From positions 1 through 64,000 of IMG/VR virus record IMGVR_UViG_3300033153_006744: DNA of 64,000 nucleotides; one strand, 5' to 3'. Below, one piece after another: positions 1 through 61,400 of this stretch. How positions within the stretch are numbered: position 1 is the first letter of the stretch; each line of letters opens with the position of its first letter. Made by a program: the position numbers and the translations under genes. The DNA comes from a virus. The notes beneath the pieces are model-generated. The model was not told the origin of the DNA. It did not search any database and saw only the letters and a list, made by a program, of their open reading frames with translations.

Positions 1-240
1 TCTCTTAATGTTTTAGCTCTATCCTTTATGAATTTCTCTTTTTCTTCTTTTGTTAAACTATCATAATATTCAGTTAAACTGTGAGACTTAAAACTTAAAT
101 GCTTTAACGTTTTTTTCAAGTGTTTTCTTTTTATTGTTTTCACATCTCACCCCCACGGGCAACACATCAATTTTGCTCTAACCATATATTGTGTTATTTA
201 TAAAATTATAAAACGCCATCAACATGTTACCCTATATAGA

Positions 241-471
241 TTAAAATCTTCTAGCTTTTAAATATTCTTTAAATTCGTCTGTACTCAATCTAGTAATATC
301 AAATGTCGTGATTGATGTATTTCTTTTGAAATATTCTTTTGTCTCTTTGTTTTGGTAAATTCCGTATTCAGAATCAAACAACTCAACAGTTGTAATGTAA
401 TCGAAATGCTTTGGATTGTGAGCTTTATCAAAGCCTACTACGTTATATAAACCTAATGCACTAAAAATCAT
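241..471 (-). CDS. Hypothetical phage protein
   Basis: ORF with AGGAGG RBS upstream. Confidence 0.6.
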   Translation of the reverse strand: MIFSALGLYNVVGFDKAHNPKHFDYITTVELFDSEYGIYQNKETKEYFKRNTSITTFDITRLSTDEFKEYLKARRF

Positions 472-44912: not shown

Positions 44913-45368
44913 TTAAGATAAGTTTAATCTTTTTGCATAAGAATATGCTAAAGAAAAGTTTTCAGTTGCTGCATCAGTGTTGCCAGTATCTCCGCCGCTT
45001 TCGCCATATTTAGAATAACAAGCACCGAATAATCTCCAGCCTTCTTTTTCAACACCGTTTGCATCAGTCCTAATTAAATCAACTGTAAATAGTGCCCCGC
45101 TTATGTTACCGCCAGACTCTGGACTTACTGGAGTTCTTGACTCAAAGTCATCCCAAAGGCTTTGATCTTTTACTAAAGCGTTTGTAACGTCAATGGGTGT
45201 CCATGTTGCATCAACAGGTTCAACATGTGGATGTGGTCGACCACCCATTTTTACAGTCATTATGCTTGCTTCAACTTCAGGGAATCCCATAGTTAAAGCT
45301 GTTAAGATCTCTCTTCCATCTATTCTCATCTTAAAATATCTATTTGTATAAAATTTTGAATCAGCCAT
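44913..45368 (-). CDS. Tail tube protein (T4 gp19-like)
   Basis: 151 aa after sheath; WRLFGACYSKY...ATENFSLAY. Confidence 0.85.
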   Translation of the reverse strand: MADSKFYTNRYFKMRIDGREILTALTMGFPEVEASIMTVKMGGRPHPHVEPVDATWTPIDVTNALVKDQSLWDDFESRTPVSPESGGNISGALFTVDLIRTDANGVEKEGWRLFGACYSKYGESGGDTGNTDAATENFSLAYSYAKRLNLS

Positions 45369-45382
45369 TTTAAACTCCTATA

Positions 45383-46969
45383 TTATTTCATTCTTGCAAC
45401 TCTTAAAGTAATAAATAGCGCAGGATCACCTAATGCAACTTGAACATCAGCCGTTAACCTACCCTCTCTTAATAAATTAGGTGGATTAAGGTCTTCACCT
45501 ACATCTACGATATAAGCTTCGCTAGGTTTTGTGCTTGCAAAGAAACCATCATCCCTATATACATCAACTATATCTTCTATATCTAATTCTATTTGTTTTA
45601 AATCATTTGTAGAAATTGTCTTATGTCTAATGTTTCTGTTTAAAACAGCACCAATCTCTCTTTCAAGTCTAATTAATGTTCTAAGGTTTGCAACCCAATC
45701 AATGTTTCCAGTCATATCCATTAATTTTTCACCTTCAATAACAGTTGATTCAGCATCACTATCAAAGATTAAGCAATTAACATTATATGGGAATAAAGCA
45801 TCAGTTACTTTTTTATAATTAGCTTCAATTCTTGTAACGCCTTTTATATCTGGATCTTGCAATAATCCATTTATTAATCCAGCTGCATTTTCACTAGTTC
45901 CGTTTAATAGTTCTCTATCTAATCTAACATATCTACCTAATACATGTGCAGTTGGATCATAATTAATGTTTCCATCAGCATCAGAAGTATAGACGTTTGT
46001 ATCTGGATTAGCTATTTTCAACCAAGGCCAGAAATAAGCTAAATTAAAAGAAAACTCATTATATGTTCCTTGCATTAATGTTTTAGTAGCTGCTGGTGTA
46101 GCTGATGCACTTAAATCTGCAATAGGCATAAATATAGTGCTTTCTCTAACAACTTCTATGTAATTCTTTATCTCTGTTATGCTTGCTATATCTAAAGCTT
46201 CAGGATAAGCTATTGCCGTTACGTCTTCCCCTCTATCAACATATCTAATTCCAGTTATGTTGGTTCCGGCTTCATCGGTATATCCTTTTACATCATCGCT
46301 ATCTAAACTTGTTACCCCATCATCTCCACCAGCTAATGTGTAATCAGCTAAAACAGGAGTATCAACGAGAACATCAGATAAGTCGACACCTTCAACAAAG
46401 TCATGACCATTAAATTCATCATTAAATTTAGTGAGCCAATAATTTTCTGTATCAGATAACAAGCAGCTTACATTAGCCCATTTTCTAAACCCACCGTCAA
46501 CTGTATCTAAAACAATAATGTTAAAACGATCTGCATCACCATCGTCTGGAGCTTCTAATGTCACCCTAAATCTAACAGGCCAAGTTCCCGCCTCTTTTCC
46601 TTGGAACTTAAATCTAGCAAATGGAGCAACATTTGTATCATCTGCAGTTATTTCACTTACAACATCTGTTGCTGTTGCTGGATCTGTAACATCAGTATAA
46701 TGCACTAACTTAACGCCATAACATTTTGTTGGTTTAATTGGACTTGCTTCTTTGAAAAATCTTTCAACATACTTATAAAGCGTTGCGTTTGCATGGTGTC
46801 CACCATATGCTTTATAGGCCTCATCTAATGTTTTAAATTCTGTTAAATCTAAAGGGCCATACGCTGAAGTTCCAACAAAAACAGGTACGGCGTGAGATTG
46901 CAAAGAATTAAGAGATGTATCTTTTTTGTTTACAATTTTACCTTGTACTTTTGAACCCTTGAATTCCAT
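45383..46969 (-). CDS. Tail sheath protein
   Basis: PVFVGTSAYGP, LAGGDDG, AYFWPWLKI, NVNCL and PALFITLRV. Confidence 0.92.
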   Translation of the reverse strand: MEFKGSKVQGKIVNKKDTSLNSLQSHAVPVFVGTSAYGPLDLTEFKTLDEAYKAYGGHHANATLYKYVERFFKEASPIKPTKCYGVKLVHYTDVTDPATATDVVSEITADDTNVAPFARFKFQGKEAGTWPVRFRVTLEAPDDGDADRFNIIVLDTVDGGFRKWANVSCLLSDTENYWLTKFNDEFNGHDFVEGVDLSDVLVDTPVLADYTLAGGDDGVTSLDSDDVKGYTDEAGTNITGIRYVDRGEDVTAIAYPEALDIASITEIKNYIEVVRESTIFMPIADLSASATPAATKTLMQGTYNEFSFNLAYFWPWLKIANPDTNVYTSDADGNINYDPTAHVLGRYVRLDRELLNGTSENAAGLINGLLQDPDIKGVTRIEANYKKVTDALFPYNVNCLIFDSDAESTVIEGEKLMDMTGNIDWVANLRTLIRLEREIGAVLNRNIRHKTISTNDLKQIELDIEDIVDVYRDDGFFASTKPSEAYIVDVGEDLNPPNLLREGRLTADVQVALGDPALFITLRVARMK

Positions 46970-47269: not shown

Positions 47270-48161
47270 TTAATGTTATATCTGTAATTTCATCATAAAC
47301 ATCTTTTATAACTTTATCGTAACTTGTAATAGGAATTCTATATATAATTATATCTAAAGAATCTGAAGGATAATTATCATTTCCAACTGTAAAGTTATTA
47401 TATTGCTCTATTTCCCATTCGTAATCAATGTCATCATGATTAAAAGAAGGCATCTTATTTCTTAAATCATATATTATCCTATTCTTTAACCTTAAAACTA
47501 TCTGTGGAGATTGAGACCAAAACATTATTCTTAATGTTATATCTTGTAGTCTTTCTCTAGCATTCTTATATAAGTCATTGACCCCCTGAACATCATCAGC
47601 TGGCAAAAACATCACATCGGCTGGAGTTACGCCAACCAAGCTAACCACAGAGCCAGTATCACTCATTTTGCTTAACTCTTGTCCAGATGTTTCACTCATA
47701 TAATCTTGGCTTCTATATAAAAAAGTTTCATGTAACCAAAATGTTTTTAGTTTCTTTATGAAAGTTTTTATTATATTTTCAACATCACACGCTTGTTCAT
47801 TTTCATCAGGCATTTCGTAAGTCCAAGAGTCTGTTTCTGTTACTGTTTCACCTGGTATAGGATCTAAATTGTCATCTAAGTTAGTAATGATTATATCTCC
47901 AAGCAAAGGAAACTTAGAAGGAGCACCTTTTTCATCTGTCCATGGGTCAGCATCATAAGCTGGCGTCCATATTCGCAACAAAGCACCATCTTCTAACACA
48001 TCAACTCTATCAGCAACAATGCCTTGAAACTTAACTTCAACAACATGTGGATTGCTGCCCACTGCAGCTATTCTGAAATTAGTGCCTATAATATAGACAA
48101 CATCTTTTCCAAATGTAAGTCCAGAAGGTTGTGAAATACTTGTAAAAGTTGGAACAGCCAT
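47247..48161 (-). CDS. Tail terminator-like protein with N-terminal IPT/TIG domain
   Basis: PTFTSISQPSGLTFGKDVVYIIGTNF is IPT/TIG-like; upstream of sheath. Confidence 0.6.
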   Translation of the reverse strand: MAVPTFTSISQPSGLTFGKDVVYIIGTNFRIAAVGSNPHVVEVKFQGIVADRVDVLEDGALLRIWTPAYDADPWTDEKGAPSKFPLLGDIIITNLDDNLDPIPGETVTETDSWTYEMPDENEQACDVENIIKTFIKKLKTFWLHETFLYRSQDYMSETSGQELSKMSDTGSVVSLVGVTPADVMFLPADDVQGVNDLYKNARERLQDITLRIMFWSQSPQIVLRLKNRIIYDLRNKMPSFNHDDIDYEWEIEQYNNFTVGNDNYPSDSLDIIIYRIPITSYDKVIKDVYDEITDITLNVERKDD

Positions 48162-48712
48162 TACCTTAAACCCTTAGCTTTTAAAGCTCTTAAAGCCTGC
48201 GTTGTAAACAAATGCTCTATATTACCTTTCATCTTTCGATAAATAGGGGCAATAAAAGGTCTAGCAGGGATATTTATTATTTTAAATCTGCCATCTTCGC
48301 CTTTTCTCATAATTGTTTTACCGTGTTCATGAACCCAGGCTATATTAACCATCTTACCTTTTTCGCCATCAGAGTCATATTCTTCATTTCTATGTATTCC
48401 AACAAAAAAAGAGCCTCTTCCTGTACTAGTTAGCCTAATGCTTCTAAGCAATTGCCCATATCTTATTAAAGCTTTGGTTCCCTTAAAGCCCTCTGCCCTT
48501 CTTCTTGCTATTGTTGCTTTAGCTAAGGGTTTAAATCTTTCATTATTGGGGGCTTGACTTCTTATTCCAAGTTTTATTTCTTTTACGGAAAACATTGCTA
48601 AACGTCTTAACACTAAATGCATAACTGGTTTAGCTTGTTTATATATTGTATTTAAAGCCGTTGACGCCTTATCCCAATCACCAAAAACATTTTTACCCAT
48701 ATTAACCCCCAC
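48161..48712 (-). CDS. Virion morphogenesis / tail completion protein (Mu gpG-like)
   Basis: FKPLAKATIARR, KALIRYGQLLRSI, IAWVHEHG, IPARPFI. Confidence 0.85.
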   Translation of the reverse strand: MGVNMGKNVFGDWDKASTALNTIYKQAKPVMHLVLRRLAMFSVKEIKLGIRSQAPNNERFKPLAKATIARRRAEGFKGTKALIRYGQLLRSIRLTSTGRGSFFVGIHRNEEYDSDGEKGKMVNIAWVHEHGKTIMRKGEDGRFKIINIPARPFIAPIYRKMKGNIEHLFTTQALRALKAKGLR

Positions 48713-49405: not shown

Positions 49406-49819
49406 TTAATTAAATAATTGTTTAACTTCGTCATTTTCTTTTTCGTCAAAGTTAAATATTAGTAAATAGTTATTGTTAATATATAATTCAAAGTTAAAAA
49501 TAACATTGTTACGCTTAACTTCTAAATTAAAGCCAAAAACATCAGCCTCGCTTTTGGTAAAGCCTAGTTCGCTTAAGTCTGCTTCTATATCTTGCAGCCT
49601 TAACAGCCTTTCTTTTTCTAGGTTATTAGATCTAGTTGCTTGATCATGTGACATATCTGTCATGCTTTCTGGTTTTGATAGAAAGCCTTTTATTATATCT
49701 TTGTTATAGCTATATATTAAAAGACATATATTGCCTATTAGTATGTAATTATCTTTTTCTTTAATGTATGCCTTCTTAAGCATGTGTTCTAAGTTATCAA
49801 CAGTTCTTTCTTTTGTCAT
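49406..49819 (-). CDS. Hypothetical protein
   Basis: Likely start MTKERT with GGAG RBS. Confidence 0.5.
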   Translation of the reverse strand: MTKERTVDNLEHMLKKAYIKEKDNYILIGNICLLIYSYNKDIIKGFLSKPESMTDMSHDQATRSNNLEKERLLRLQDIEADLSELGFTKSEADVFGFNLEVKRNNVIFNFELYINNNYLLIFNFDEKENDEVKQLFN

Positions 49820-49873
49820 AAAATCTCCGTAAATTAACATTGTATATATAGCATTTGTGCAATAAAAAAGCAA

Positions 49874-50536
49874 TTATTGTTTATCTTTGTGGTTGTTTAG
49901 CCTTATAAATGACAACACAACTAATAATTGCAACTCACTAAACTTAGAAAAAAACATCTTATTGTCATTGTATTTACTTAATCCGAACTTTCCGATAACA
50001 TTAAACTTTATACTTTTGCCACTTATTATTTCAGTTTTTGAGAACTTAAAGGCAATCATTTCCTTAGCTGTTTCATGAATTTCAAGCATATCATCAAGAT
50101 TTATTTTCACAAGCCCTTTGTCAGTGCCAATTGTTATTGAATCTTTATTATAATTAACCTTGCAAAAAAAGAAGAAATGTTTTTTATACGAGAAATTAAC
50201 ACCAACCATAAATGGGCTTTTCTCCTTTTTGATTAAATCAAAGAGAACACTCCTGTTTTTAGTTGTTATAAACTCCTTTTCTGTAGCAAAAAAGTTAACT
50301 TGCCTTAATGTTTGGTTTTCTTTTAAGTTTTTGGTTTTAAACAAAGAAGAGCAAGTTAAGCATAATGTTTTTGAGTTATTCTTAAAAATATAGAAGTCAT
50401 TAAAGTTAGCTGATACCGTATTCTTTATTAAGTATCCATTACTTACTTCGCAATTACACAATGCGCAGGTTCCTTTTTCTTTTCCATCTTCGTTTTTAAT
50501 TATATGTTTATCTAGTATGTTAACTATATCTTTCAT
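49874..50536 (-). CDS. csf1: Type IV Csf1 (Cas8-like large subunit)
   Basis: Zn-finger CALC...SANFNDF...LCLTC and PFMVGVNFSYKKHFF; adjacent to csf3. Confidence 0.75.
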   Translation of the reverse strand: MKDIVNILDKHIIKNEDGKEKGTCALCNCEVSNGYLIKNTVSANFNDFYIFKNNSKTLCLTCSSLFKTKNLKENQTLRQVNFFATEKEFITTKNRSVLFDLIKKEKSPFMVGVNFSYKKHFFFFCKVNYNKDSITIGTDKGLVKINLDDMLEIHETAKEMIAFKFSKTEIISGKSIKFNVIGKFGLSKYNDNKMFFSKFSELQLLVVLSFIRLNNHKDKQ

Positions 50537-51218
50537 TGTTCTCCTTTAGTTGTTTTGGGATTAATATATTTTCTTGATATTCACCTAGCCAATATGGCGC
50601 ACGATAAGACCCATAATCATTTACATAAGAGAAATCTCTATCTTTAAATATGTTATCAGCCATCACCTTAAGTGGCAGTGGTCTAAATAATAAATATTTT
50701 TGCTCTTCTTTTTCGGCAATCGTAATCTCAAAACTTGAAAACCAACCGAACCCAGCCTTAACTTTTTTCCCAATCCCAACAATATAATCTACTAGTTCTT
50801 TTATCTTGTTTTTATCTCCTATAAAATAAAAAACTATATTATCAACAGAATTTATAACAATAGGCATGTCATAGCTTTTATAATATCCACTACCTATATT
50901 TACCTTTCTTTTGGCTTTTCCAAAATAACTAAGAAAATCATGTCTTGAATTCCATCGTTTCCGCCACTTGTCAATTGATATTTCTTTTTTCTCTATTATT
51001 CCATAAGAACAAAGATAAAAACCTAATTTGTGTTTTTTTATGGGGATTAATTTTTCTATATTCTTATTTATTTCGGAACCATTCGAGGTTTTAATGTCGG
51101 TGTTTTTTCTAAAATATTTCTGATAAACTGCATAAGAAATAATGCTGTCAAAAATAGGTATATCTGTATAAGCAATTGGAGATGACATTTTAAATTTTAT
51201 TTTATAAGTTATATCCAT
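50520..51218 (-). CDS. csf3: Type IV Csf3 (Cas5-like RAMP)
   Basis: SSPIA...FDSIISYA, GSGYYKSYDMP, FIGD, G-rich loop GIGKKVKAGFG, RPLP, YRAPYW. Confidence 0.85.
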   Translation of the reverse strand: MDITYKIKFKMSSPIAYTDIPIFDSIISYAVYQKYFRKNTDIKTSNGSEINKNIEKLIPIKKHKLGFYLCSYGIIEKKEISIDKWRKRWNSRHDFLSYFGKAKRKVNIGSGYYKSYDMPIVINSVDNIVFYFIGDKNKIKELVDYIVGIGKKVKAGFGWFSSFEITIAEKEEQKYLLFRPLPLKVMADNIFKDRDFSYVNDYGSYRAPYWLGEYQENILIPKQLKENNERYS

Positions 51219-51832
51219 GATTTTGAGAACTCCTTATTTCTAAACAAGTTTCCGAGTCCAGTAAATTGCTTTAACCTTAAGACCTCGTCCTTATCCATCC
51301 CTAGTTGTTCACTTATCTTCTTGTCACTCCAGCCCATAAAATAAAGCTCTTCAACTATTTCACTCATAGATTGTATGCCATGCGTTCCTCTCGCCCTATT
51401 GTGTCTAATTGTACTAGCCATTCTTTCCTTTAAACTTTTTTCTATAACCACTAGTGGCAAATAGCCCTTGGTTCGTGTTTTTATGTCATCATATTCCTTT
51501 CCAATTCTATTCCTGTGAAATCCATCAACAACAACATACTTATCTTGCTCTTTATCATAAAAAGATACAATTGGTTGAGTATATCCATCTTCTTTTATTG
51601 ACCTATATAATAATTGCATTTCTGGAGGTGCAACCTTGTTTGGGTTGTAATTATTAGCCTTAACCCTATCTGCTTTTATCCACAAAACATTGCTGACTGG
51701 CTCTTCTTTAAGTGGGTTAATTTCGTTTAGTTTAGAATAAATGTCATTTAATAATTCTATCTTGTCATCTTGTTTTCTTATCTTCTTTATGTTGAAAATA
51801 AGTTCGTCAACCTTATCTAATAATTCTTTCAT
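51209..51832 (-). CDS. ibrB: IbrB/YbdM-like ParB/Srx-family protein
   Basis: ANNYNPNKVAPPEMQLL...DGYTQPIV...VVDGFHR...RMASTIRHNRARG...LGMDKDEVLRLKQ. Confidence 0.9.
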   Translation of the reverse strand: MKELLDKVDELIFNIKKIRKQDDKIELLNDIYSKLNEINPLKEEPVSNVLWIKADRVKANNYNPNKVAPPEMQLLYRSIKEDGYTQPIVSFYDKEQDKYVVVDGFHRNRIGKEYDDIKTRTKGYLPLVVIEKSLKERMASTIRHNRARGTHGIQSMSEIVEELYFMGWSDKKISEQLGMDKDEVLRLKQFTGLGNLFRNKEFSKSWI

Positions 51833-53046
51833 TCTCCTAGCTCCTCTTTCATTTTATAATATTTTTCGTATTGATTTTTAGTTTGACCAAACGACAAACT
51901 TTTACAGATTTTATCGTTCTTTAATATAACTTTAGCAAGCCTCCGCCATGATGGAGCCTTTTTAGAGCTTTCAAGTTTTTTGTCTGCTTCATCTGGAATT
52001 CCATCTGGATAACCATTTTTAGACCACCACCGAATAAATATCTTGAATTTTTGCCCATACCACTCTGCTTCAAATTTTGGAAGAGTTGCCATTAGAAAAT
52101 TAACATAACTTTCCCATGTGTGATTTTTTGGCAATATTACCTTGTTGTTTCCTAATAAAAAGCTTTTGCAATATATGTTGCCAAAATTAGCTCCAGACAC
52201 TCTATCAACAATTCTAGACCACGTTTCAGGTTCACACTGTCTAAATAAATTAAGACCTTTTCTTTGGTCATCTCCGTATGGCTGACATATTCTTGCTTCA
52301 TGTATTGATAACCCCTGCATGTACATGAAATCATAAATTTTATTGTATGTATAGCTCTCGTTTCCAACAGAAACCCATATATCTTTAGTCTTCCAGTCAT
52401 AAATAGGGTAAAAATTAAAAACATTCTCAACAATTTGAGTTGTCCACATTTTATCTTTATATATTTTTTTCTTCGTATTTTTAATGGTTCTATATCTATT
52501 TAAACTTTCATCTGATCTTATTCCAACTCCACAGGCAATTTTTTCTTTTCCAACTTTGAACCACTCTGCAAACCTAACAACTAATTCTTCAAACTCTATT
52601 CCTCTATGAAACCATTTCTCCCATTCTTTGGGCATGTTATTTTCGTTTATAACATATTTTGAATTAGGCATCGGCCTAACCCATTTATCTTCATTTTCTT
52701 TATCCCAACAAATCCATTGTGGCTGGTAAACACTTACTGCATTTCTTAAATTTAAAGGCAAGCATAGCCAATAACCATCAATATCTTTATTGTTGAAAAT
52801 TTCTTCAACATGCTTTATTGTAGACTTATACTGAGCCTCTAAGTCAATGAAAAGTATTTTTATTGGTATTTTGTTCTTTTTTTTCGCAATTTCAAGTGCT
52901 AGTTGAACCATTACACTAGAGTCTTTTCCGCCAGAAAAAGAAAAGCAAATCTCATCTTTGTCAAAGTTGTCAAAAATAAAATTAAGTCTTTCTATTGCCT
53001 TGTCCCAAACATTTACTTTTGAATATGTTTTTGATTCACTGTTCAT
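51829..53046 (-). CDS. ibrA: IbrA/YbdN-like protein (PAPS-reductase fold plus DUF3440)
   Basis: PP-loop SFSGGKDS, FIDLEAQY, GIRSDESLNRY, YPIYDW, RICQPYGDDQRKGL, APSWRR. Confidence 0.9.
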   Translation of the reverse strand: MNSESKTYSKVNVWDKAIERLNFIFDNFDKDEICFSFSGGKDSSVMVQLALEIAKKKNKIPIKILFIDLEAQYKSTIKHVEEIFNNKDIDGYWLCLPLNLRNAVSVYQPQWICWDKENEDKWVRPMPNSKYVINENNMPKEWEKWFHRGIEFEELVVRFAEWFKVGKEKIACGVGIRSDESLNRYRTIKNTKKKIYKDKMWTTQIVENVFNFYPIYDWKTKDIWVSVGNESYTYNKIYDFMYMQGLSIHEARICQPYGDDQRKGLNLFRQCEPETWSRIVDRVSGANFGNIYCKSFLLGNNKVILPKNHTWESYVNFLMATLPKFEAEWYGQKFKIFIRWWSKNGYPDGIPDEADKKLESSKKAPSWRRLAKVILKNDKICKSLSFGQTKNQYEKYYKMKEELGE

Positions 53047-53096: not shown

Positions 53097-53870
53097 CTAT
53101 GTATATGCTTTTATTTCTGGATGAAAACTTAACATGAGATTGTATTGTTTTTTATAGTAATACTTTAACCATGAAAACTGACCTATTGTTGCAGCCGTTG
53201 GATCTACAAACCAAGATATTCTTATTTTAGCTGGATCATCTGTAAATCTTGTTTTATTATATGCCGGGTGTAGCAATTTATCTAATTTTCTACTGTAAAT
53301 ATATGCAAAAACATCATCCCCAGTTAAATCACAAATCGGATAAAACTGATATATCTTATTTTTCTTAGAATAAAATAATTTACCCATATGTTTTATTAAA
53401 TTTTCCCTTCTTTTGCTTTCTTCTTTTCTTATCCCAATCAAGGCAATTTTATAATCATTGTCCTGTTGGAAGTTTCTAATGGGCGTCATCATTGCCTTTT
53501 CAAACGCATAATTCTTGCACCCAGCATCATAAAAAGCCTTCTTTTTTGCATATTCATCTAGTATGTCAATTGGGGATTTTACTACATTTATTGTCTTATT
53601 GTGGTGTTTTTCCGCTAGTTTTATAATTCCGTAGCTCTCGGGTAGCTCATACCAAGAATCATGAAACATTATGTCTAAATTAGGGTTTGCCTCTAATGCA
53701 ATATCTAGCATTACTAAACTATCCTTGCCAGTGCTATATGAAATAGAACCCTTTGTATTTCTTGTTTCTTTTTCAATAGAGCTCTTAACCAGCTCTATTT
53801 TTCCCTTAAACTCGTCTAGCTCTGCATACAACAAATAATATTCTTTATTTTTCATTTTCTTTAACTCCAA
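53097..53870 (-). CDS. cysH: CysH-like (PAPS-reductase fold) type IV-B accessory protein
   Basis: SYSTGKDSLVM, IGIRKEESKRR, YPICDLTGDDVFAYI; lacks the C-terminal ECGLH; directly follows csf2. Confidence 0.85.
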   Translation of the reverse strand: MELKKMKNKEYYLLYAELDEFKGKIELVKSSIEKETRNTKGSISYSTGKDSLVMLDIALEANPNLDIMFHDSWYELPESYGIIKLAEKHHNKTINVVKSPIDILDEYAKKKAFYDAGCKNYAFEKAMMTPIRNFQQDNDYKIALIGIRKEESKRRENLIKHMGKLFYSKKNKIYQFYPICDLTGDDVFAYIYSRKLDKLLHPAYNKTRFTDDPAKIRISWFVDPTAATIGQFSWLKYYYKKQYNLMLSFHPEIKAYT

Positions 53871-55044
53871 TAAAAGCTAGGATATCTTTTTTGTTTTTCT
53901 CTATATGCCTTAAGTATAAATTATTTGCATTTTCAGGAATTGTCAACTCTGACAAATCTATTTCAGATGAACCAGTTGCAAACATTCCGCCAATAAACGG
54001 ATTTTCTTTAAAAAGAATTAATGCATGCCAGAAGGCCGAAACAGATAATTCATTAAAATCCATCATTCTAAAGCCATGATTGAACTGAGTTCCTTTTGCA
54101 AAAACTTCATATTCATACTTCATATGAGTTGGGTTTTCATCTTTTTTGTCTTTTATCGCCTTTATTGATATATTCTTTTCATCTTTAGAGCTATCTTTTC
54201 TGCTTTGAAAAATCATGTCCAAGTAAGACCAGAATGAGTTAATTCCTGTTTTCAACTCCACGCATTTAGGATATGCAAAACCAACAGATAATTGACCTTC
54301 TATTGTCATGTTGCCTATTGCACTGCCAAAAACACCAAGCATTGGAATGCTATCTATTAGCTTTTCTCTTTTTTCTAAGTCCTCATATAGGGTAGACTCG
54401 GTCAAGGCTCCGCCAGTAAACAAAATATGATATAATTGTTTATCTATTTTTTTACATCCAACTCTTTTTAAGAAATCATACATCGCTAATCTTCTTAAGA
54501 CGCCCCTAATGCTATTTCCAGATATACAAGGAATCAGCTCAAATGTTTTATTGTATGTTTTAAGTTTCTCTTTTTTTACATCTAATTTATGGTCTTTATC
54601 CTTGCTCTTCATTCTTAATAAAACAGTTATAGTGTGAGCCTCATCTCTAACTTTTGACAAAAACTCAACATCTGTTATTTGTTGTAGATAATTGAATGTT
54701 TTATCTTTTAAATCAGGCATTCTAACACCACATAAATCTGCAAATACTTCAAAAAATTGGAATCTATTTGAAGATGTTGCAGACCTTTTAATTTTTGAAT
54801 ATAGCTCATCCCATATTCCCATTAATCTCTTTCCTTTTATTTTGCTAAAGTCTATCTTAGAGTATATACTATAACAAACATCAACAATGATATTTCTAAC
54901 ATCATCATCTGAAAACGAGGTTAAAAAGTTCTCGTTTTTAACCATTATTTTCTGTCTCCTAAGCAGCTTTGTTGTTCCGTCTGTCTTATCGGAACCCGTG
55001 TGAAGGAATGTTGTTCCAGTGAAATTGTAGTCAACTTTAATCAT
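53845..55044 (-). CDS. csf2: Type IV Csf2 (Cas7) with an inserted helical Cas11-like domain
   Basis: TTFLHTG, IPCISGNSIRGVLRR, LFTGGAL, PMLGVFGSA...IEGQLSVG, MKYEYEVFAKGT, IGGMFATGSSEI. Confidence 0.85.
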   Translation of the reverse strand: MIKVDYNFTGTTFLHTGSDKTDGTTKLLRRQKIMVKNENFLTSFSDDDVRNIIVDVCYSIYSKIDFSKIKGKRLMGIWDELYSKIKRSATSSNRFQFFEVFADLCGVRMPDLKDKTFNYLQQITDVEFLSKVRDEAHTITVLLRMKSKDKDHKLDVKKEKLKTYNKTFELIPCISGNSIRGVLRRLAMYDFLKRVGCKKIDKQLYHILFTGGALTESTLYEDLEKREKLIDSIPMLGVFGSAIGNMTIEGQLSVGFAYPKCVELKTGINSFWSYLDMIFQSRKDSSKDEKNISIKAIKDKKDENPTHMKYEYEVFAKGTQFNHGFRMMDFNELSVSAFWHALILFKENPFIGGMFATGSSEIDLSELTIPENANNLYLRHIEKNKKDILAFIGVKENEK

Positions 55045-55099: not shown

Positions 55100-55528
55100 C
55101 TATTCTTTTAAAAAGTTTAAATGTGCATTCATTGCAAATCTTGAGCTAAAAGAAGTTTTATCTTTATTTATTTTGCCTAATTCGTTTACCCTTGCAACAG
55201 TAAGAATAAAATTAGAGTTAGATTTTCTAAATTTATTAAAATAAAAAACCTCTTCGGTTTCGTCATTTTTGAACATATGGAATTCTTCCTGTAATCTTTC
55301 TAGCTCAGTTTTTTTAGACAATATTTTTAACAAGAAAATTCCGTCCTCTTTTAAAACAAGTTCAACGTTAAATTTGTCTTCTAGTTCTTCTTTCTCTACT
55401 CTAGTACATTCAGCTGCAATGCACTCAAATTTTTTAGCATTATTACTTAGAACAACTAAATCTTTGTTAGCTTTAAATATAGTTAAGTTTTTAAAGTTTT
55501 TTCTAATTTCATTATATAATTTTTTCAT
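55100..55528 (-). CDS. Hypothetical protein, first gene of the Cas cassette transcript
   Basis: Follows the promoter at 55550-55613; AAGGAG RBS. Confidence 0.6.
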   Translation of the reverse strand: MKKLYNEIRKNFKNLTIFKANKDLVVLSNNAKKFECIAAECTRVEKEELEDKFNVELVLKEDGIFLLKILSKKTELERLQEEFHMFKNDETEEVFYFNKFRKSNSNFILTVARVNELGKINKDKTSFSSRFAMNAHLNFLKE

Positions 55529-57654: not shown

Positions 57655-58626
57655 TTATATTGTAACTCCATCAATTAAAACATTAGCTGGTTCTTCATTT
57701 AATTGCAAGTCTAATTTATATCTAGCAACAATTTTAAATGTTCCAGTATCAATGTCTTTGTCTGTTTCAACTGTAATGTTTTTCAAAATACCCAAGAAAC
57801 AATTCATTTTATTTAATAAAACAACATCTGTTTCTGTTCCACCACCAAGCGTAATAGGCATATAATCAGATTGAATAACAGGAATACCATTGATAATCAT
57901 GCCATCAACACCTTTTAACAATGTAGCGTCGCCAAGTTGTGTTTCTCTTCCTTGCATTTCAGTCATATTTGTTAATTTAGTTCTTGCAGACTGGATATAA
58001 AGTAAGTCTTGAGGTTTTAGATATTTTGGATCTAACAACTTTAAGATATTAGCATGTTCTTCTAAATCGAAATCAGCTATTGTTCCAGTGTTTGTTGTTA
58101 TGATTTTCCTTAAACCATCCATAGTTTTTAACAATAGATAATCTGGATGCCCAGGATCTGTTGCAGTGTCACCATTAAGAATTAAATTATCAATATCTCT
58201 AGCAATGGCTTCAATAAGTTGATTTGTAACTGTTGTAATAAATCCATCTTTTTCAATGTTTTCTTCTATGTCTTCATAAGATAGAAATGTTGTTGCTCTT
58301 AATCTTTTTACATTAAATGTAACCTTTGATAAAGATGGTGATCTTCTGTTAGAAGACGTTGACCCTGTATATTCCTCATCTTCAACTGACACTGAACCAG
58401 TAAAACCCATTACAGGTATAGATTGTGTAATTGCCTTTAACGGAATAGTTCTAATCATTTTAGCTAAAACTGTTTTCTCAACTATTTTAGCCATAAATTT
58501 TTGTAAATTATCTTGTTTAATTTCTCCACCAGCTGTTTCAATGTCACCAATTGACAAGTCAGCTTTCGTAACGAAATGTCCATTAATTAACTCATTTGCT
58601 TTTGCTATCAAAACTTCTCTATTCAT
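57655..58626 (-). CDS. Major capsid protein (HK97 fold)
   Basis: LSYEDIEEN, AIARDIDNLILNGD, DGLRK, INGIPVI, ITVETDKD. Confidence 0.92.
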   Translation of the reverse strand: MNREVLIAKANELINGHFVTKADLSIGDIETAGGEIKQDNLQKFMAKIVEKTVLAKMIRTIPLKAITQSIPVMGFTGSVSVEDEEYTGSTSSNRRSPSLSKVTFNVKRLRATTFLSYEDIEENIEKDGFITTVTNQLIEAIARDIDNLILNGDTATDPGHPDYLLLKTMDGLRKIITTNTGTIADFDLEEHANILKLLDPKYLKPQDLLYIQSARTKLTNMTEMQGRETQLGDATLLKGVDGMIINGIPVIQSDYMPITLGGGTETDVVLLNKMNCFLGILKNITVETDKDIDTGTFKIVARYKLDLQLNEEPANVLIDGVTI

Positions 58627-59423: not shown

Positions 59424-61400
59424 CTACTTTATATATTTTATTCCACCGATAGAATACGAGTTTATCCTACCTTCCATTATACCAGCAATTATTTTTTTGT
59501 CAAACAATTTAGTGACTAATACCCAATCACCCTTTTTTATTTTATAATTTGATCCTGGATATGTAAAATTTGTTTGCGCTATATAACTTTGCAAAACACC
59601 AACCTGTTTTTGTTTGTCTAAAACTTTTGTATGTTGCAATGCCATGTGGGCATAATTCATTAACCAGTTTTCAGCGGTCTCTTTTACAACTTCTGGACTA
59701 TATTTTTCACCTTGTTTGTCTACTACGCTTGGTCTTAAAACAACGCCAGCAACAGTTAGTTCTCCATTATCTCCAATAGCCTTACTCATTACATCTATAT
59801 TAATCTTTCCGTCTGATTTCGATGAGGTTAGTTTCCATAAATTATAAGCTGTTCTATTTAATTCATAATCATAATCGAATGCTTTTATTAAATAGCCAAC
59901 CTTATCATTTTCGTTTTCTTCTTCAAAATCAGAAAAGCAATCAACATTATAGCTTATTATCTTAAAATCATCTTCTTTAACATCCTGATCAAAAGATTTT
60001 GACAATATTTCTGTCCATATATTGCTTTCTATCTTGTCACCTATAATCCCCTTGAACATTTTTCTTTGTTGTAAATATAAATCATCTCCATCTTTTTCAA
60101 AGACTTCAAATGCTGTTAGGTTGTTATTTTGATAAATTAAAGCAAAGTCTTTTTTGAATGGAGTATTTTTTAATTGTAACTGAGCCTTTATCAGCAAGCC
60201 AGTAACATTAGAACTTCCAGTTATGTCAATTTCTTTGTTTTCTTGAAACTGAAACATGCCATTTTCATTAATTATTAAATTATTAAAATCAAGTCCAACT
60301 GTTTTTAAATTAGCTTTTAATTTATTCTTTAACTCTAATCTCTTTGTATCATCTTCTATTGTCCAATATATGTATTCAGACGGAACTCTATCTTCAACTA
60401 CTTTAGGCAACCCAGAAAAACCAAAAGGAGTAACTATGTCATCTTTAGTTAAAACATAAGGCTTTAGATTATTGCTAGTTTTTGAAACCCATTCACCTTT
60501 TTCATTTATTCTAAAAAACAATCTACCATTTAAATCTTTTCCTTCAGCGAAATATTCAACATAATCATTTGATTTATATCCACATTCTACAGTGCATGCA
60601 CCAGCAACAACAGCTTTTTCAAACTGATTAGATTCTCTTCTATAGTTGTTAGTTGTATCGTTGAAAGGTAATGATCTAACTCCATTTTGAAGAGGCTTAA
60701 ACCACTTGTTCCCTTCTTCACTAAAATTTTCAGCTATATAAGGCATGTCTACATTGTTCTTGGGAATGCTATTAGGCTTATTGTATAAGTACCAACTAGC
60801 AACATTGGCATCATCTTTTACATTAGGTAAGATATAATTAAGTAAAGTCTTGTATTCTTCTGGTGTGCCTATAACTTGTAATAAGCCATCTAATTTACCT
60901 TTGAAATAAACTTCAACTGAATTACTGTCTAATGTTGCCTTGCTCATTATATCTCGCTGGAAATCATCCCATTTTTTAGGAGCTATAATTTGCGTATCAT
61001 CCATTAACGACATTCTAATTCCATCTAAAATCATTATGCTATTTTCAAGTACATTCATGTTAAAATCATATTCGTTTAATTCACCATTCTTGTTAGCTAA
61101 AAAATCAACAATATAAGCTAATTTTTCAAGATAAAATTGCTTTTGCTCAGCTATAGATAATGAATAAAACTTAACATCCCTATCATTATCTGATAAAATA
61201 AAACTTTCTTCACAATCATCAGGCCTAACTATTAAGTTGTTATATAAATATCTAAGGGTGTCATCTGCTCTCAAGATAAGTATCTTTATGAAAGCCAACT
61301 TTTCACTTTGAGAATTGTTGTTTATCCAGTTCTCAATTAAAAATTCCTCTAAACCATAAATTGCGTATAGTTGCGTAATATACTTTCTTAATGTTTCCAT
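59424..61400 (-). CDS. Large protein with C-terminal XkdF-like prohead protease domain
   Basis: VAGVVLRPSVVDKQGE...LQH...QSYIA...KKGDWVL...GRINSYSIGG. Confidence 0.8.
   Translation of the reverse strand: METLRKYITQLYAIYGLEEFLIENWINNNSQSEKLAFIKILILRADDTLRYLYNNLIVRPDDCEESFILSDNDRDVKFYSLSIAEQKQFYLEKLAYIVDFLANKNGELNEYDFNMNVLENSIMILDGIRMSLMDDTQIIAPKKWDDFQRDIMSKATLDSNSVEVYFKGKLDGLLQVIGTPEEYKTLLNYILPNVKDDANVASWYLYNKPNSIPKNNVDMPYIAENFSEEGNKWFKPLQNGVRSLPFNDTTNNYRRESNQFEKAVVAGACTVECGYKSNDYVEYFAEGKDLNGRLFFRINEKGEWVSKTSNNLKPYVLTKDDIVTPFGFSGLPKVVEDRVPSEYIYWTIEDDTKRLELKNKLKANLKTVGLDFNNLIINENGMFQFQENKEIDITGSSNVTGLLIKAQLQLKNTPFKKDFALIYQNNNLTAFEVFEKDGDDLYLQQRKMFKGIIGDKIESNIWTEILSKSFDQDVKEDDFKIISYNVDCFSDFEEENENDKVGYLIKAFDYDYELNRTAYNLWKLTSSKSDGKINIDVMSKAIGDNGELTVAGVVLRPSVVDKQGEKYSPEVVKETAENWLMNYAHMALQHTKVLDKQKQVGVLQSYIAQTNFTYPGSNYKIKKGDWVLVTKLFDKKIIAGIMEGRINSYSIGGIKYIK

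Follow-up and report, generated by a model that had tools for sequence, protein, structure and literature searches.

The window analysed here is a stretch of 64,000 nucleotides (nt), bases 1-64000 of one 90,494-bp viral contig (IMG/VR record IMGVR_UViG_3300033153_006744). At ~49.4-55.5 kb it contains a block of minus-strand genes in the order 142-amino acid (aa) open reading frame (ORF), csf2L, cysH-like gene, DUF3440 PAPS-reductase gene, ParB-N gene, csf3, csf1 and 155-aa ORF (Table 1). The genes csf1, csf2 and csf3 occur here together with a cysH-like gene (PADLOC, Pfam, and NCBIfam), the gene set by which type IV-B, the least understood of the CRISPR-Cas subtypes, is recognised; we describe the operon as type IV-B-like and arrayless. 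Our subject is csf2L, because the Csf2 (Cas7) protein it encodes contains, within its Cas7 fold at residues ~46-148, a domain homologous to Cas11, the small subunit of type IV complexes. We regard both the homology and the insertion as near certain.

The Csf2 protein and its internal domain

The 399-aa protein is a type IV Csf2/Cas7, whose Cas7 fold is made up of residues 1-42 and 162-392. The PADLOC typeIV_Cas7 model PDLC01724 matches residues 157-392 (E 1.3e-49), starting from profile position 32, and three more typeIV_Cas7 models of PADLOC match at E 3.5e-30 or better; TIGR03115 reaches 37 bits against a curated cut-off of 130, and the Pfam RAMPs match is likewise under its cut-off. AlphaFold2, run on an alignment of 37 full-length relatives (A1), gave a model with a predicted local distance difference test score (pLDDT) of 87.0 and a predicted template modelling score (pTM) of 0.83. 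This model begins with strands within residues 2-42 (2-10, 20-22, 25-27, and 29-42) and continues with six helices (46-148), a poorly conserved charged stretch, a strand (162-174) and the Cas7 core. VIA-align superposes the whole model on type IV Csf2 with Z 17.3 (8rc3_A), 17.0 (8rc2_A) and 16.4 (7jhy_e, 217 residues aligned), with the structural alignment to solved Csf2 spanning model residues 1-2 to ~392, and Foldseek also places type IV Csf2 chains on top.

The preliminary description of this DNA, made from the letters alone, had given a 399-aa protein at 53845-55044 with about 130 mostly helical residues between two Cas7 elements that are normally close together. The minus-strand ORF is indeed 399 aa long, with TTFLHTG at residues 11-17, LRRQKI at 28-33 and IPCISGNSIRG at 171-181; the intervening segment measures ~137 residues and holds the six helices of the model, and the second motif, which starts at residue 39-60 in solved Csf2/Cas7 chains, starts at ~170 here. 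Consistent with this, the A1 profile compared with solved Cas7 chains (best, 11fs_C Cas7c, E 1.7e-14, and 7jhy_e Csf2, E 1.3e-10) matches from profile position ~180 onward, which corresponds to chain residues 39-60, and therefore ~120-130 extra residues lie ahead of the GNSxRG helix.

The extra residues are related to Cas11 by sequence. Two PADLOC typeIV_Cas11 models match the segment, PDLC01695 at residues 55-164 (E 9.6e-8, profile positions 9-119 of 122) and PDLC01694 at residues 48-150 (E 4.8e-7, profile positions 8-108 of 114), and they match 37/37 (best E 7.4e-20) and 35/37 of the full-length relatives, respectively. A hidden Markov model (HMM) built from the insert columns of A1 only was compared with 49 related viral loci retrieved by a scan of IMG/VR (L001-L049); it matches the insert of 18 long Csf2 genes and also a 105-156-aa ORF directly upstream of short csf2 in 26 loci (E 1e-19 to 2e-5). 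In the reciprocal direction, an HMM built from 16 small Cas11 proteins and zero inserts matches the Csf2 of the window with E 2.5e-14 (HMM positions 8-116). When inserts and 16 stand-alone Cas11 proteins are aligned together (A2), the two are colinear end to end and have the motifs LLxxVWxxID and IWDEF in common, and in A1 the basic insert residues R49, R73, K84, R133 and R144 are near-invariant; a minor filament that runs on Cas7-Cas7 interfaces and has a positively charged face is a mark of type IV Cas11.

Because structure searches with the whole model list only Cas7-type chains and are uninformative on the insert, we folded the insert alone (residues 43-160) on the mixed alignment A2, which gave a model with pLDDT 88.8 and pTM 0.80. 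The preliminary description had taken residues ~40-150 for an embedded Cas11, and the fold bears this out: VIA-align matches the domain model to 7jhy_h, the type IV-B Cas11, with Z 10.3 and 3.2 Å root mean square deviation over 112 of 118 residues, and 7jhy_h is the sole chain with Z ≥8 among 48,161, the next chain having Z 5.1. The insert thus resembles Cas11 by sequence profiles as well as by fold. Because it is an internal domain of Csf2 and not a separate protein, we refer to it as a Cas11 homologue or domain and not as a Cas11 subunit in the usual sense.

The position of the insert was defined with a core HMM, which is A1 minus the insert columns. On long proteins the core HMM splits (for example, HMM 1-52 on residues 1-52 and HMM 43-274 on residues 163-393), and on short Csf2 it is continuous, as in the L021 protein, where HMM 2-273 matches residues 3-270. 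Similarly, in a MAFFT alignment of five long and nine short Csf2 proteins, the two forms match through '..LRRQK..' and rejoin a few residues before 'IPxISGNSIRG', the segment in between being missing from the short forms; the N-terminal strand, the H-x-G-x-D loop and the RRxK strand are common to both. Because residues 1-42 align with the N terminus of short Csf2, and because the model superposes on the whole fold from residue 1-2 onward, this is a true in-frame insertion, as had been proposed, and not an N-terminal fusion. In the model the Cas11 domain sits at the tip of a hairpin (strands 29-42 and 162-174), between the first strand and the first helix. Its N-terminal junction has a median gap of 0; on the other side, 177 long forms have a median of 17 residues (range -12 to 163) separating the Cas11 match from the second core match, and the linker columns of A1 vary strongly in length.

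The connection from the first strand to the first helix holds a putative catalytic loop in the Csf2 of 7JHY and the catalytic loop in type III Csm3, next to the target strand (PMC7937560). In our model the insert is at the site of the type III 'catalytic loop', a loop that faces the target strand and the small-subunit filament. Because the catalytic-loop side is the side of the small-subunit filament, the geometry of a tethered domain is plausible.

The 399-aa start is backed by an N terminus that is conserved in all 37 aligned relatives, with G17, D19, G23 and R30 invariant. The copy of csf2L in a public collection is 366 aa long (92% of the ORF, ~33 residues short), which fits a gene call that starts at the internal Met34 and drops the first Cas7 strand.

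Cas11 in related loci and the tree of Csf2

Consistent with the preliminary remark that the operon has no obvious separate cas11, none was detected in the operon or elsewhere in the contig: PADLOC found no second Cas11 among the eight operon proteins, and three Cas11 HMMs, run with --max against all stop-to-stop ORFs of ≥40 aa, retrieved only the Csf2 ORF below E 0.03. To the 49 viral loci we added six loci from genome contigs (L050-L055), which come from metagenome-assembled genomes labelled Paludibacter, Desulfobacteraceae, Syntrophobacteraceae, Bacteroidales and one unclassified bacterium. A separate Cas11-like ORF was found in none of the long-Csf2 loci, whether viral (18/18, L001-L018) or from genome contigs (6/6). 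Most of the viral loci have no room for another gene between csf1 and csf2, because the former runs right up to or into the start of the latter.

Among the 31 short-Csf2 loci (L019-L049), cas11 lies directly upstream of csf2 in 27, of which 26 were found with the insert-only HMM and one (L036, 139 aa, E 4.5e-9) by a more sensitive search. The remainder are L046, which is cut by the contig end, and L047-L049, in which csf1 is enlarged (338-392 aa) and abuts csf2, and the last ~60 residues of Csf1 align to the C-terminal half of the Cas11 HMM, with E values of 1e-7 to 2e-6 for this small search set. These matches make L047-L049 look like loci with a Csf1-Cas11 fusion; the group would then have three arrangements, with Cas11 free, embedded in Csf2 or apparently joined to the C terminus of Csf1. 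With a Cas11 domain in its Csf2, the locus of the window has no need of a separate cas11. Among the split loci, those with the stand-alone Cas11 proteins most similar to the inserts (RRMGIWDEF is common to both) have two tandem csf3-like genes.

We collected 248 near-complete Csf2 proteins including that of the window, all retrieved by similarity to the window protein, and the stand-alone-only HMM divided them into 177 with the insert and 71 without. A tree of the 237 distinct sequences, built from 276 core columns with the insert excluded (FastTree, LG+gamma), places 170 insert-bearing tips in one clade (Shimodaira-Hasegawa-like support 0.934) opposite 67 short forms (0.986); the 455- and 483-aa proteins, first called 'short' although they fall within the long clade, prove on direct testing to have the insert (E ~1e-10). 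Because all 170 insert-bearing tips are on one side of a single split, the change of state happened once, and because IV-C and type III also have free Cas11, we infer that this change was a gain of the insert and not a loss. The 150 best representatives of clusters at 50% identity include 93 with a near-complete core; at least 45 of these have the insert (393-506 aa), and 48 lack it by the stand-alone HMM (265-337 aa, except for the 455-aa protein, which carries the insert on direct test). Because at least 45 insert-bearing clusters exist at 50% identity, the family is broad and not a one-off, and the layout with Cas11 in Csf2 defines a large and apparently undescribed branch of type IV-B systems.

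Genomic setting of the operon

The window has ~31% G+C, with almost every gene on the minus strand. The contig is a tailed-phage genome, in which PHROG matches flank the csf block on both sides (Table 1): the block lies between head genes (major head protein and maturation protease) and neck/tail genes (Neck1, sheath, and tube). In a contractile-tailed phage this head-to-neck interval is an unusual site for an accessory module.

Table 1. Features of the csf block, of the Csf2L protein and of the flanking phage genes in the window (window coordinates), and genes of related loci mentioned in the text (coordinates of the locus named)
Feature	Position	Strand	Evidence or remark
csf2L, type IV Cas7 (Csf2), 399 aa, with embedded Cas11 domain	53845..55044	-	PADLOC, AlphaFold2, VIA-align
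Csf2L residues 1-42: Cas7 first strand, conserved HTGSD loop, ascending strand of long hairpin	54919..55044	-	
Csf2L residues 46-148: Cas11 (type IV small-subunit) domain, six helices	54601..54909	-	
Csf2L residues 149-161: charged linker of variable length, back to Cas7 core	54562..54600	-	
Csf2L residues 162-399: descending hairpin strand and Cas7 core with IPCISGNSIRG	53848..54561	-	PADLOC, profile against solved chains, AlphaFold2, Foldseek, VIA-align
cysH-like (PAPS reductase domain), IV-B accessory gene	53097..53870	-	PF01507 E 2.4e-18
Second PAPS-reductase-like protein, with DUF3440	51829..53046	-	PF11922 E 1.1e-37; PF01507 E 1.6e-13
ParB N-terminal-domain protein	51209..51832	-	PF02195 E 4.8e-5, under curated cut-off (23.8 vs 26.3 bits)
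csf3 (Cas5)	50520..51218	-	PADLOC PDLC01727 E 9.2e-38; TIGR03116 E 3.6e-22, under curated cut-off
csf1 (Cas8-like large subunit)	49874..50536	-	PADLOC PDLC01721 E 8.9e-27; TIGR03114 E 8.3e-12, under curated cut-off
142-aa ORF upstream	55100..55528	-	Cas11 alternative, not supported
155-aa ORF downstream	49406..49873	-	Cas11 alternative, not supported
Major head / virion structural protein	57655-58626		PHROG, E 7.9e-52
Head maturation protease domain	59424-61400		PHROG
Neck1 / tail completion protein	48161-48712		PHROG
Tail sheath	45383-46969		PHROG
Tail tube	44913-45368		PHROG
Enlarged csf1, L047	6725-7903		
Enlarged csf1, L048	1178-2356		
Enlarged csf1, L049	6895-7911		
Tandem csf3-like genes, L026	6585-8011		
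Tandem csf3-like genes, L033 and L034	10056-11473		

The cysH-like gene and the stop of csf2L overlap by 26 nt, and a homologue of this gene adjoins csf2 in most related loci. The DUF3440 protein, which we take to be IbrA-like, and the ParB-N protein, presumably its IbrB-like partner, form a pair (window 51209-53046) inside or beside the csf operon, which also has the usual cysH-like gene. The same pair is present in 7/49 related viral loci (L008, L014, L018, L026, L033, L034, and L042), with long as well as short Csf2.

A scan for direct repeats (seed 12, ≥20 nt, spacing ≤120) returned 0 direct-repeat families in the window and no CRISPR array in the rest of the contig, where it found just two 2-copy repeats that are not array-like. 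PADLOC matched neither Cas6 nor a DinG/RecD helicase among the eight operon proteins. Outside the window, a 192-aa ORF at contig 66346-66924 (L056 2346-2924, minus strand) gave no Cas6 match in PADLOC or Pfam at E ≤0.1, and downstream of it lies a fusion of ParB-N and an N6/N4 DNA methyltransferase (PF01555 E 1.9e-26). At L056 17480-17557 (contig ~81480-81557) there are two tandem 37-nt copies, 89% identical and with a spacing of 41, each of which contains GGTCCATTTTT twice; this repeat is not CRISPR-like and may be a cluster of binding sites.

Proposed assembly, alternatives, and significance

In the type IV-B complex 7JHY, each Cas11 sits on a Csf2-Csf2 interface, with six Csf2 to five Cas11 (PMC7937560). 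By analogy with this complex and with the type IV-C effector, copies of Csf2L would polymerise along RNA: their Cas7 parts would build a helical backbone, and their tethered Cas11 domains, each probably docked on a Csf2-Csf2 interface, would line up as the minor 'belly' filament. The ratio would be 1:1 in place of n:(n-1), although the backbone-to-belly ratio is fixed in this way only if long Csf2 polymerises like other Csf2. Docking on the interface of a neighbouring protomer would make assembly more cooperative. The filament would be capped by Csf1 and Csf3, with the CysH-like enzyme and, in this phage, the DUF3440 PAPS-reductase/ParB pair as the obvious candidates for an effector arm. Because the N-terminal junction is very short, the Cas11 domains would not be free to slide along the backbone. 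We hold with great confidence that the insert is homologous to Cas11, that it lies inside the Cas7 fold, that separate cas11 is complementary to it across loci and that the state changed a single time. The assembly itself (polymerisation on RNA, a belly filament and a 1:1 ratio), for which the solved complexes are the guide, is reasonably likely, and a Csf2 with an embedded Cas11 that also assembles in this manner is, taken as a whole, a probable reading.

Several points weigh against this reading. Foldseek with the isolated domain gave no match at E ≤0.001 (best E 1.5); 7jhy_g has the highest template modelling scores among the matches listed (0.62/0.53) and yet has E 3.9. The profile of inserts and stand-alone Cas11 reaches solved Cas11 sequences only weakly (7jhy_h, E 0.51, and 11fs_N, E 0.52), unrelated Protein Data Bank (PDB) sequences score alike in the same search, and we did not use this result as support for the Cas11 identity. 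Helical bundles with Z below ~13 may share just a common helix arrangement, and the Cas11 identity, with Z 10.3, therefore rests on the gap to the next match together with the sequence evidence. The tree is midpoint-rooted and contains only query-retrieved sequences, without a IV-A or IV-C outgroup. Simple read-through from an upstream cas11 cannot yield an insertion after residue 42; one conceivable origin, offered only as an idea, is that cas11-csf2 was duplicated in tandem and then underwent two in-frame deletions. Filament formation by Csf2L is proposed by analogy, and a two-copy complex prediction (399 aa, A1; score 0.01, mark 0.42) weighs neither way on oligomerisation.

There are four rival explanations. 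In the one to which we give the most weight, while still considering it unlikely, the insert derives from Cas11 and has been re-used as a docking platform for the CysH-like enzyme or DUF3440/ParB, or as an RNA lid, with no belly. The function of IV-B is not known and its complexes bind heterogeneous RNA (PMC7937560), extra enzymes are always present in the loci and the C-terminal linker varies greatly in length, all of which would suit such a role; nevertheless, the insert has kept full-length colinearity with stand-alone Cas11 and its five nearly invariant basic residues, and the absence of separate cas11 from 24/24 long-form loci fits replacement better than a new, extra role. It is very improbable that the insert is an unrelated helical elaboration of Cas7 resembling Cas11 merely as a small helical bundle. 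The Foldseek values of the isolated domain and the weak reach of the profile to Cas11 sequences in the PDB (E ~0.5) would allow it, and type I-Fv (I-F2), in which an extra Cas7 domain replaces the small subunit, offers a comparison; against it stand the significant reciprocal profile matches (PADLOC and the insert-only and stand-alone-only HMMs), the complementary gene content across loci and the fold match to 7jhy_h.

We give equally little credence to the possibility that a flanking ORF is the Cas11 of the locus and the insert an addition. The ORFs at 55100-55528 and 49406-49873 have roughly the right sizes (142 and 155 aa), are on the same strand and abut the operon, but the former has no relevant family match and the latter no family match in PADLOC, Pfam, NCBIfam or PHROG, their hhalign probabilities against A2 are 0.09 and 0.14 (in percent, that is, ~0.1% each), both are absent from the matches of the three Cas11 HMMs (--max, E ≤10) and neither has a homologue in the 49 related loci. 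Neither ORF, therefore, resembles Cas11 in sequence. Least probable of all is a simple N-terminal read-through fusion of Cas11 to Cas7, with residues 1-42 as an unrelated leader: in the split loci cas11 is indeed immediately upstream of csf2 and often overlaps it, but residues 1-42 align to the N terminus of short Csf2 including H-x-G-x-D and RRxK, they fall within the model range (2..392) that superposes on solved Csf2 and the short forms keep their own first strand.

The embedded Cas11 can be set against several known systems. Like the Csf complex of Mycobacterium sp. JS623 (7JHY), the system described here has csf1, csf2, csf3, a Cas11 function and a cysH-like accessory gene, its operon showing neither a CRISPR array nor cas6 or a helicase, and the Cas7 core and the Cas11 domain each find their best or near-best structural match there. 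In contrast to that complex, in which Cas11 is a separate 162-aa chain, it is here a domain inside each Csf2, and the locus is in a phage and has the additional DUF3440 PAPS-reductase/ParB pair. In III-E Cas7-11 (gRAMP), III-I and III-D2/III-Dv, Cas11 is also covalently joined to Cas7 domains, as a single Cas11 between different Cas7 domains of a large non-repeating protein (PMC12669027), whereas in Csf2L it interrupts one Cas7 that is expected to repeat, so that every backbone unit would carry a Cas11. The C termini of Cas8, Cas10 and bacterial Cas10IVc likewise place a small-subunit fold on another effector subunit, a C-terminal Cas11-like fusion being known in Cas10IVc2, and the Cas11-like C terminus of Csf1 in L047-L049 is the apparent counterpart in this group; unlike the insert, those are terminal fusions with one Cas11-like domain per complex at the large-subunit end (PMC13676074 and PMC10161043). 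The IV-C effector (11fs, Cas7c and Cas11c), which provides the best solved sequence match of the Cas7 part, has six Cas7-Cas11 pairs along the guide, and its Cas11c is separate and slides along Cas7c on target DNA binding (PMC13676074); the doubly tethered Cas11 domain of Csf2L could not slide likewise.

In the available parts of the literature surveyed, including the 2025 classification update, we found no statement of a Cas11 in type IV Csf2 or of a Cas7 fold interrupted by Cas11 (PMC8175902, PMC7038947, PMC10848311, PMC7937560, PMC12669027, PMC13676074, PMC10161043, and PMC10910872), although the supplementary tables of PMC7038947 and PMC12669027 could hold one. Tentatively, and with odds that we would place somewhat against it, the long-Csf2 clade may be a distinct IV-B variant that builds backbone and belly from one repeating polypeptide, with Cas11 locked in register and unable to slide. 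Such a variant would form a constitutively configured, RNA-scaffolded Csf1-Csf2L-Csf3 filament, used by phages together with CysH-like and DUF3440/ParB enzymes for a purpose outside classical interference, and would provide the first example in nature of a Cas7 fold that holds an inserted small subunit.

For practical annotation, automatic gene calls of the long-Csf2 family may be truncated at the N terminus, and pipelines that expect a separate cas11 will call long-Csf2 loci cas11-less. For the family itself, the results reveal a diverse, mostly phage- and metagenome-borne branch with a Cas11 domain inside Csf2, and with it a third route to small-subunit fusion in class 1, insertion into the repeating backbone unit, besides fusion at a terminus of the large subunit and the end-to-end joining of domains seen in Cas7-11. 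If the proposed assembly is true, the minimal effector would shrink to three proteins, the stoichiometry and register of Cas7 and Cas11 would be fixed by covalent linkage, and these phages would provide a natural test of how important the mobility of Cas11 is in target binding.

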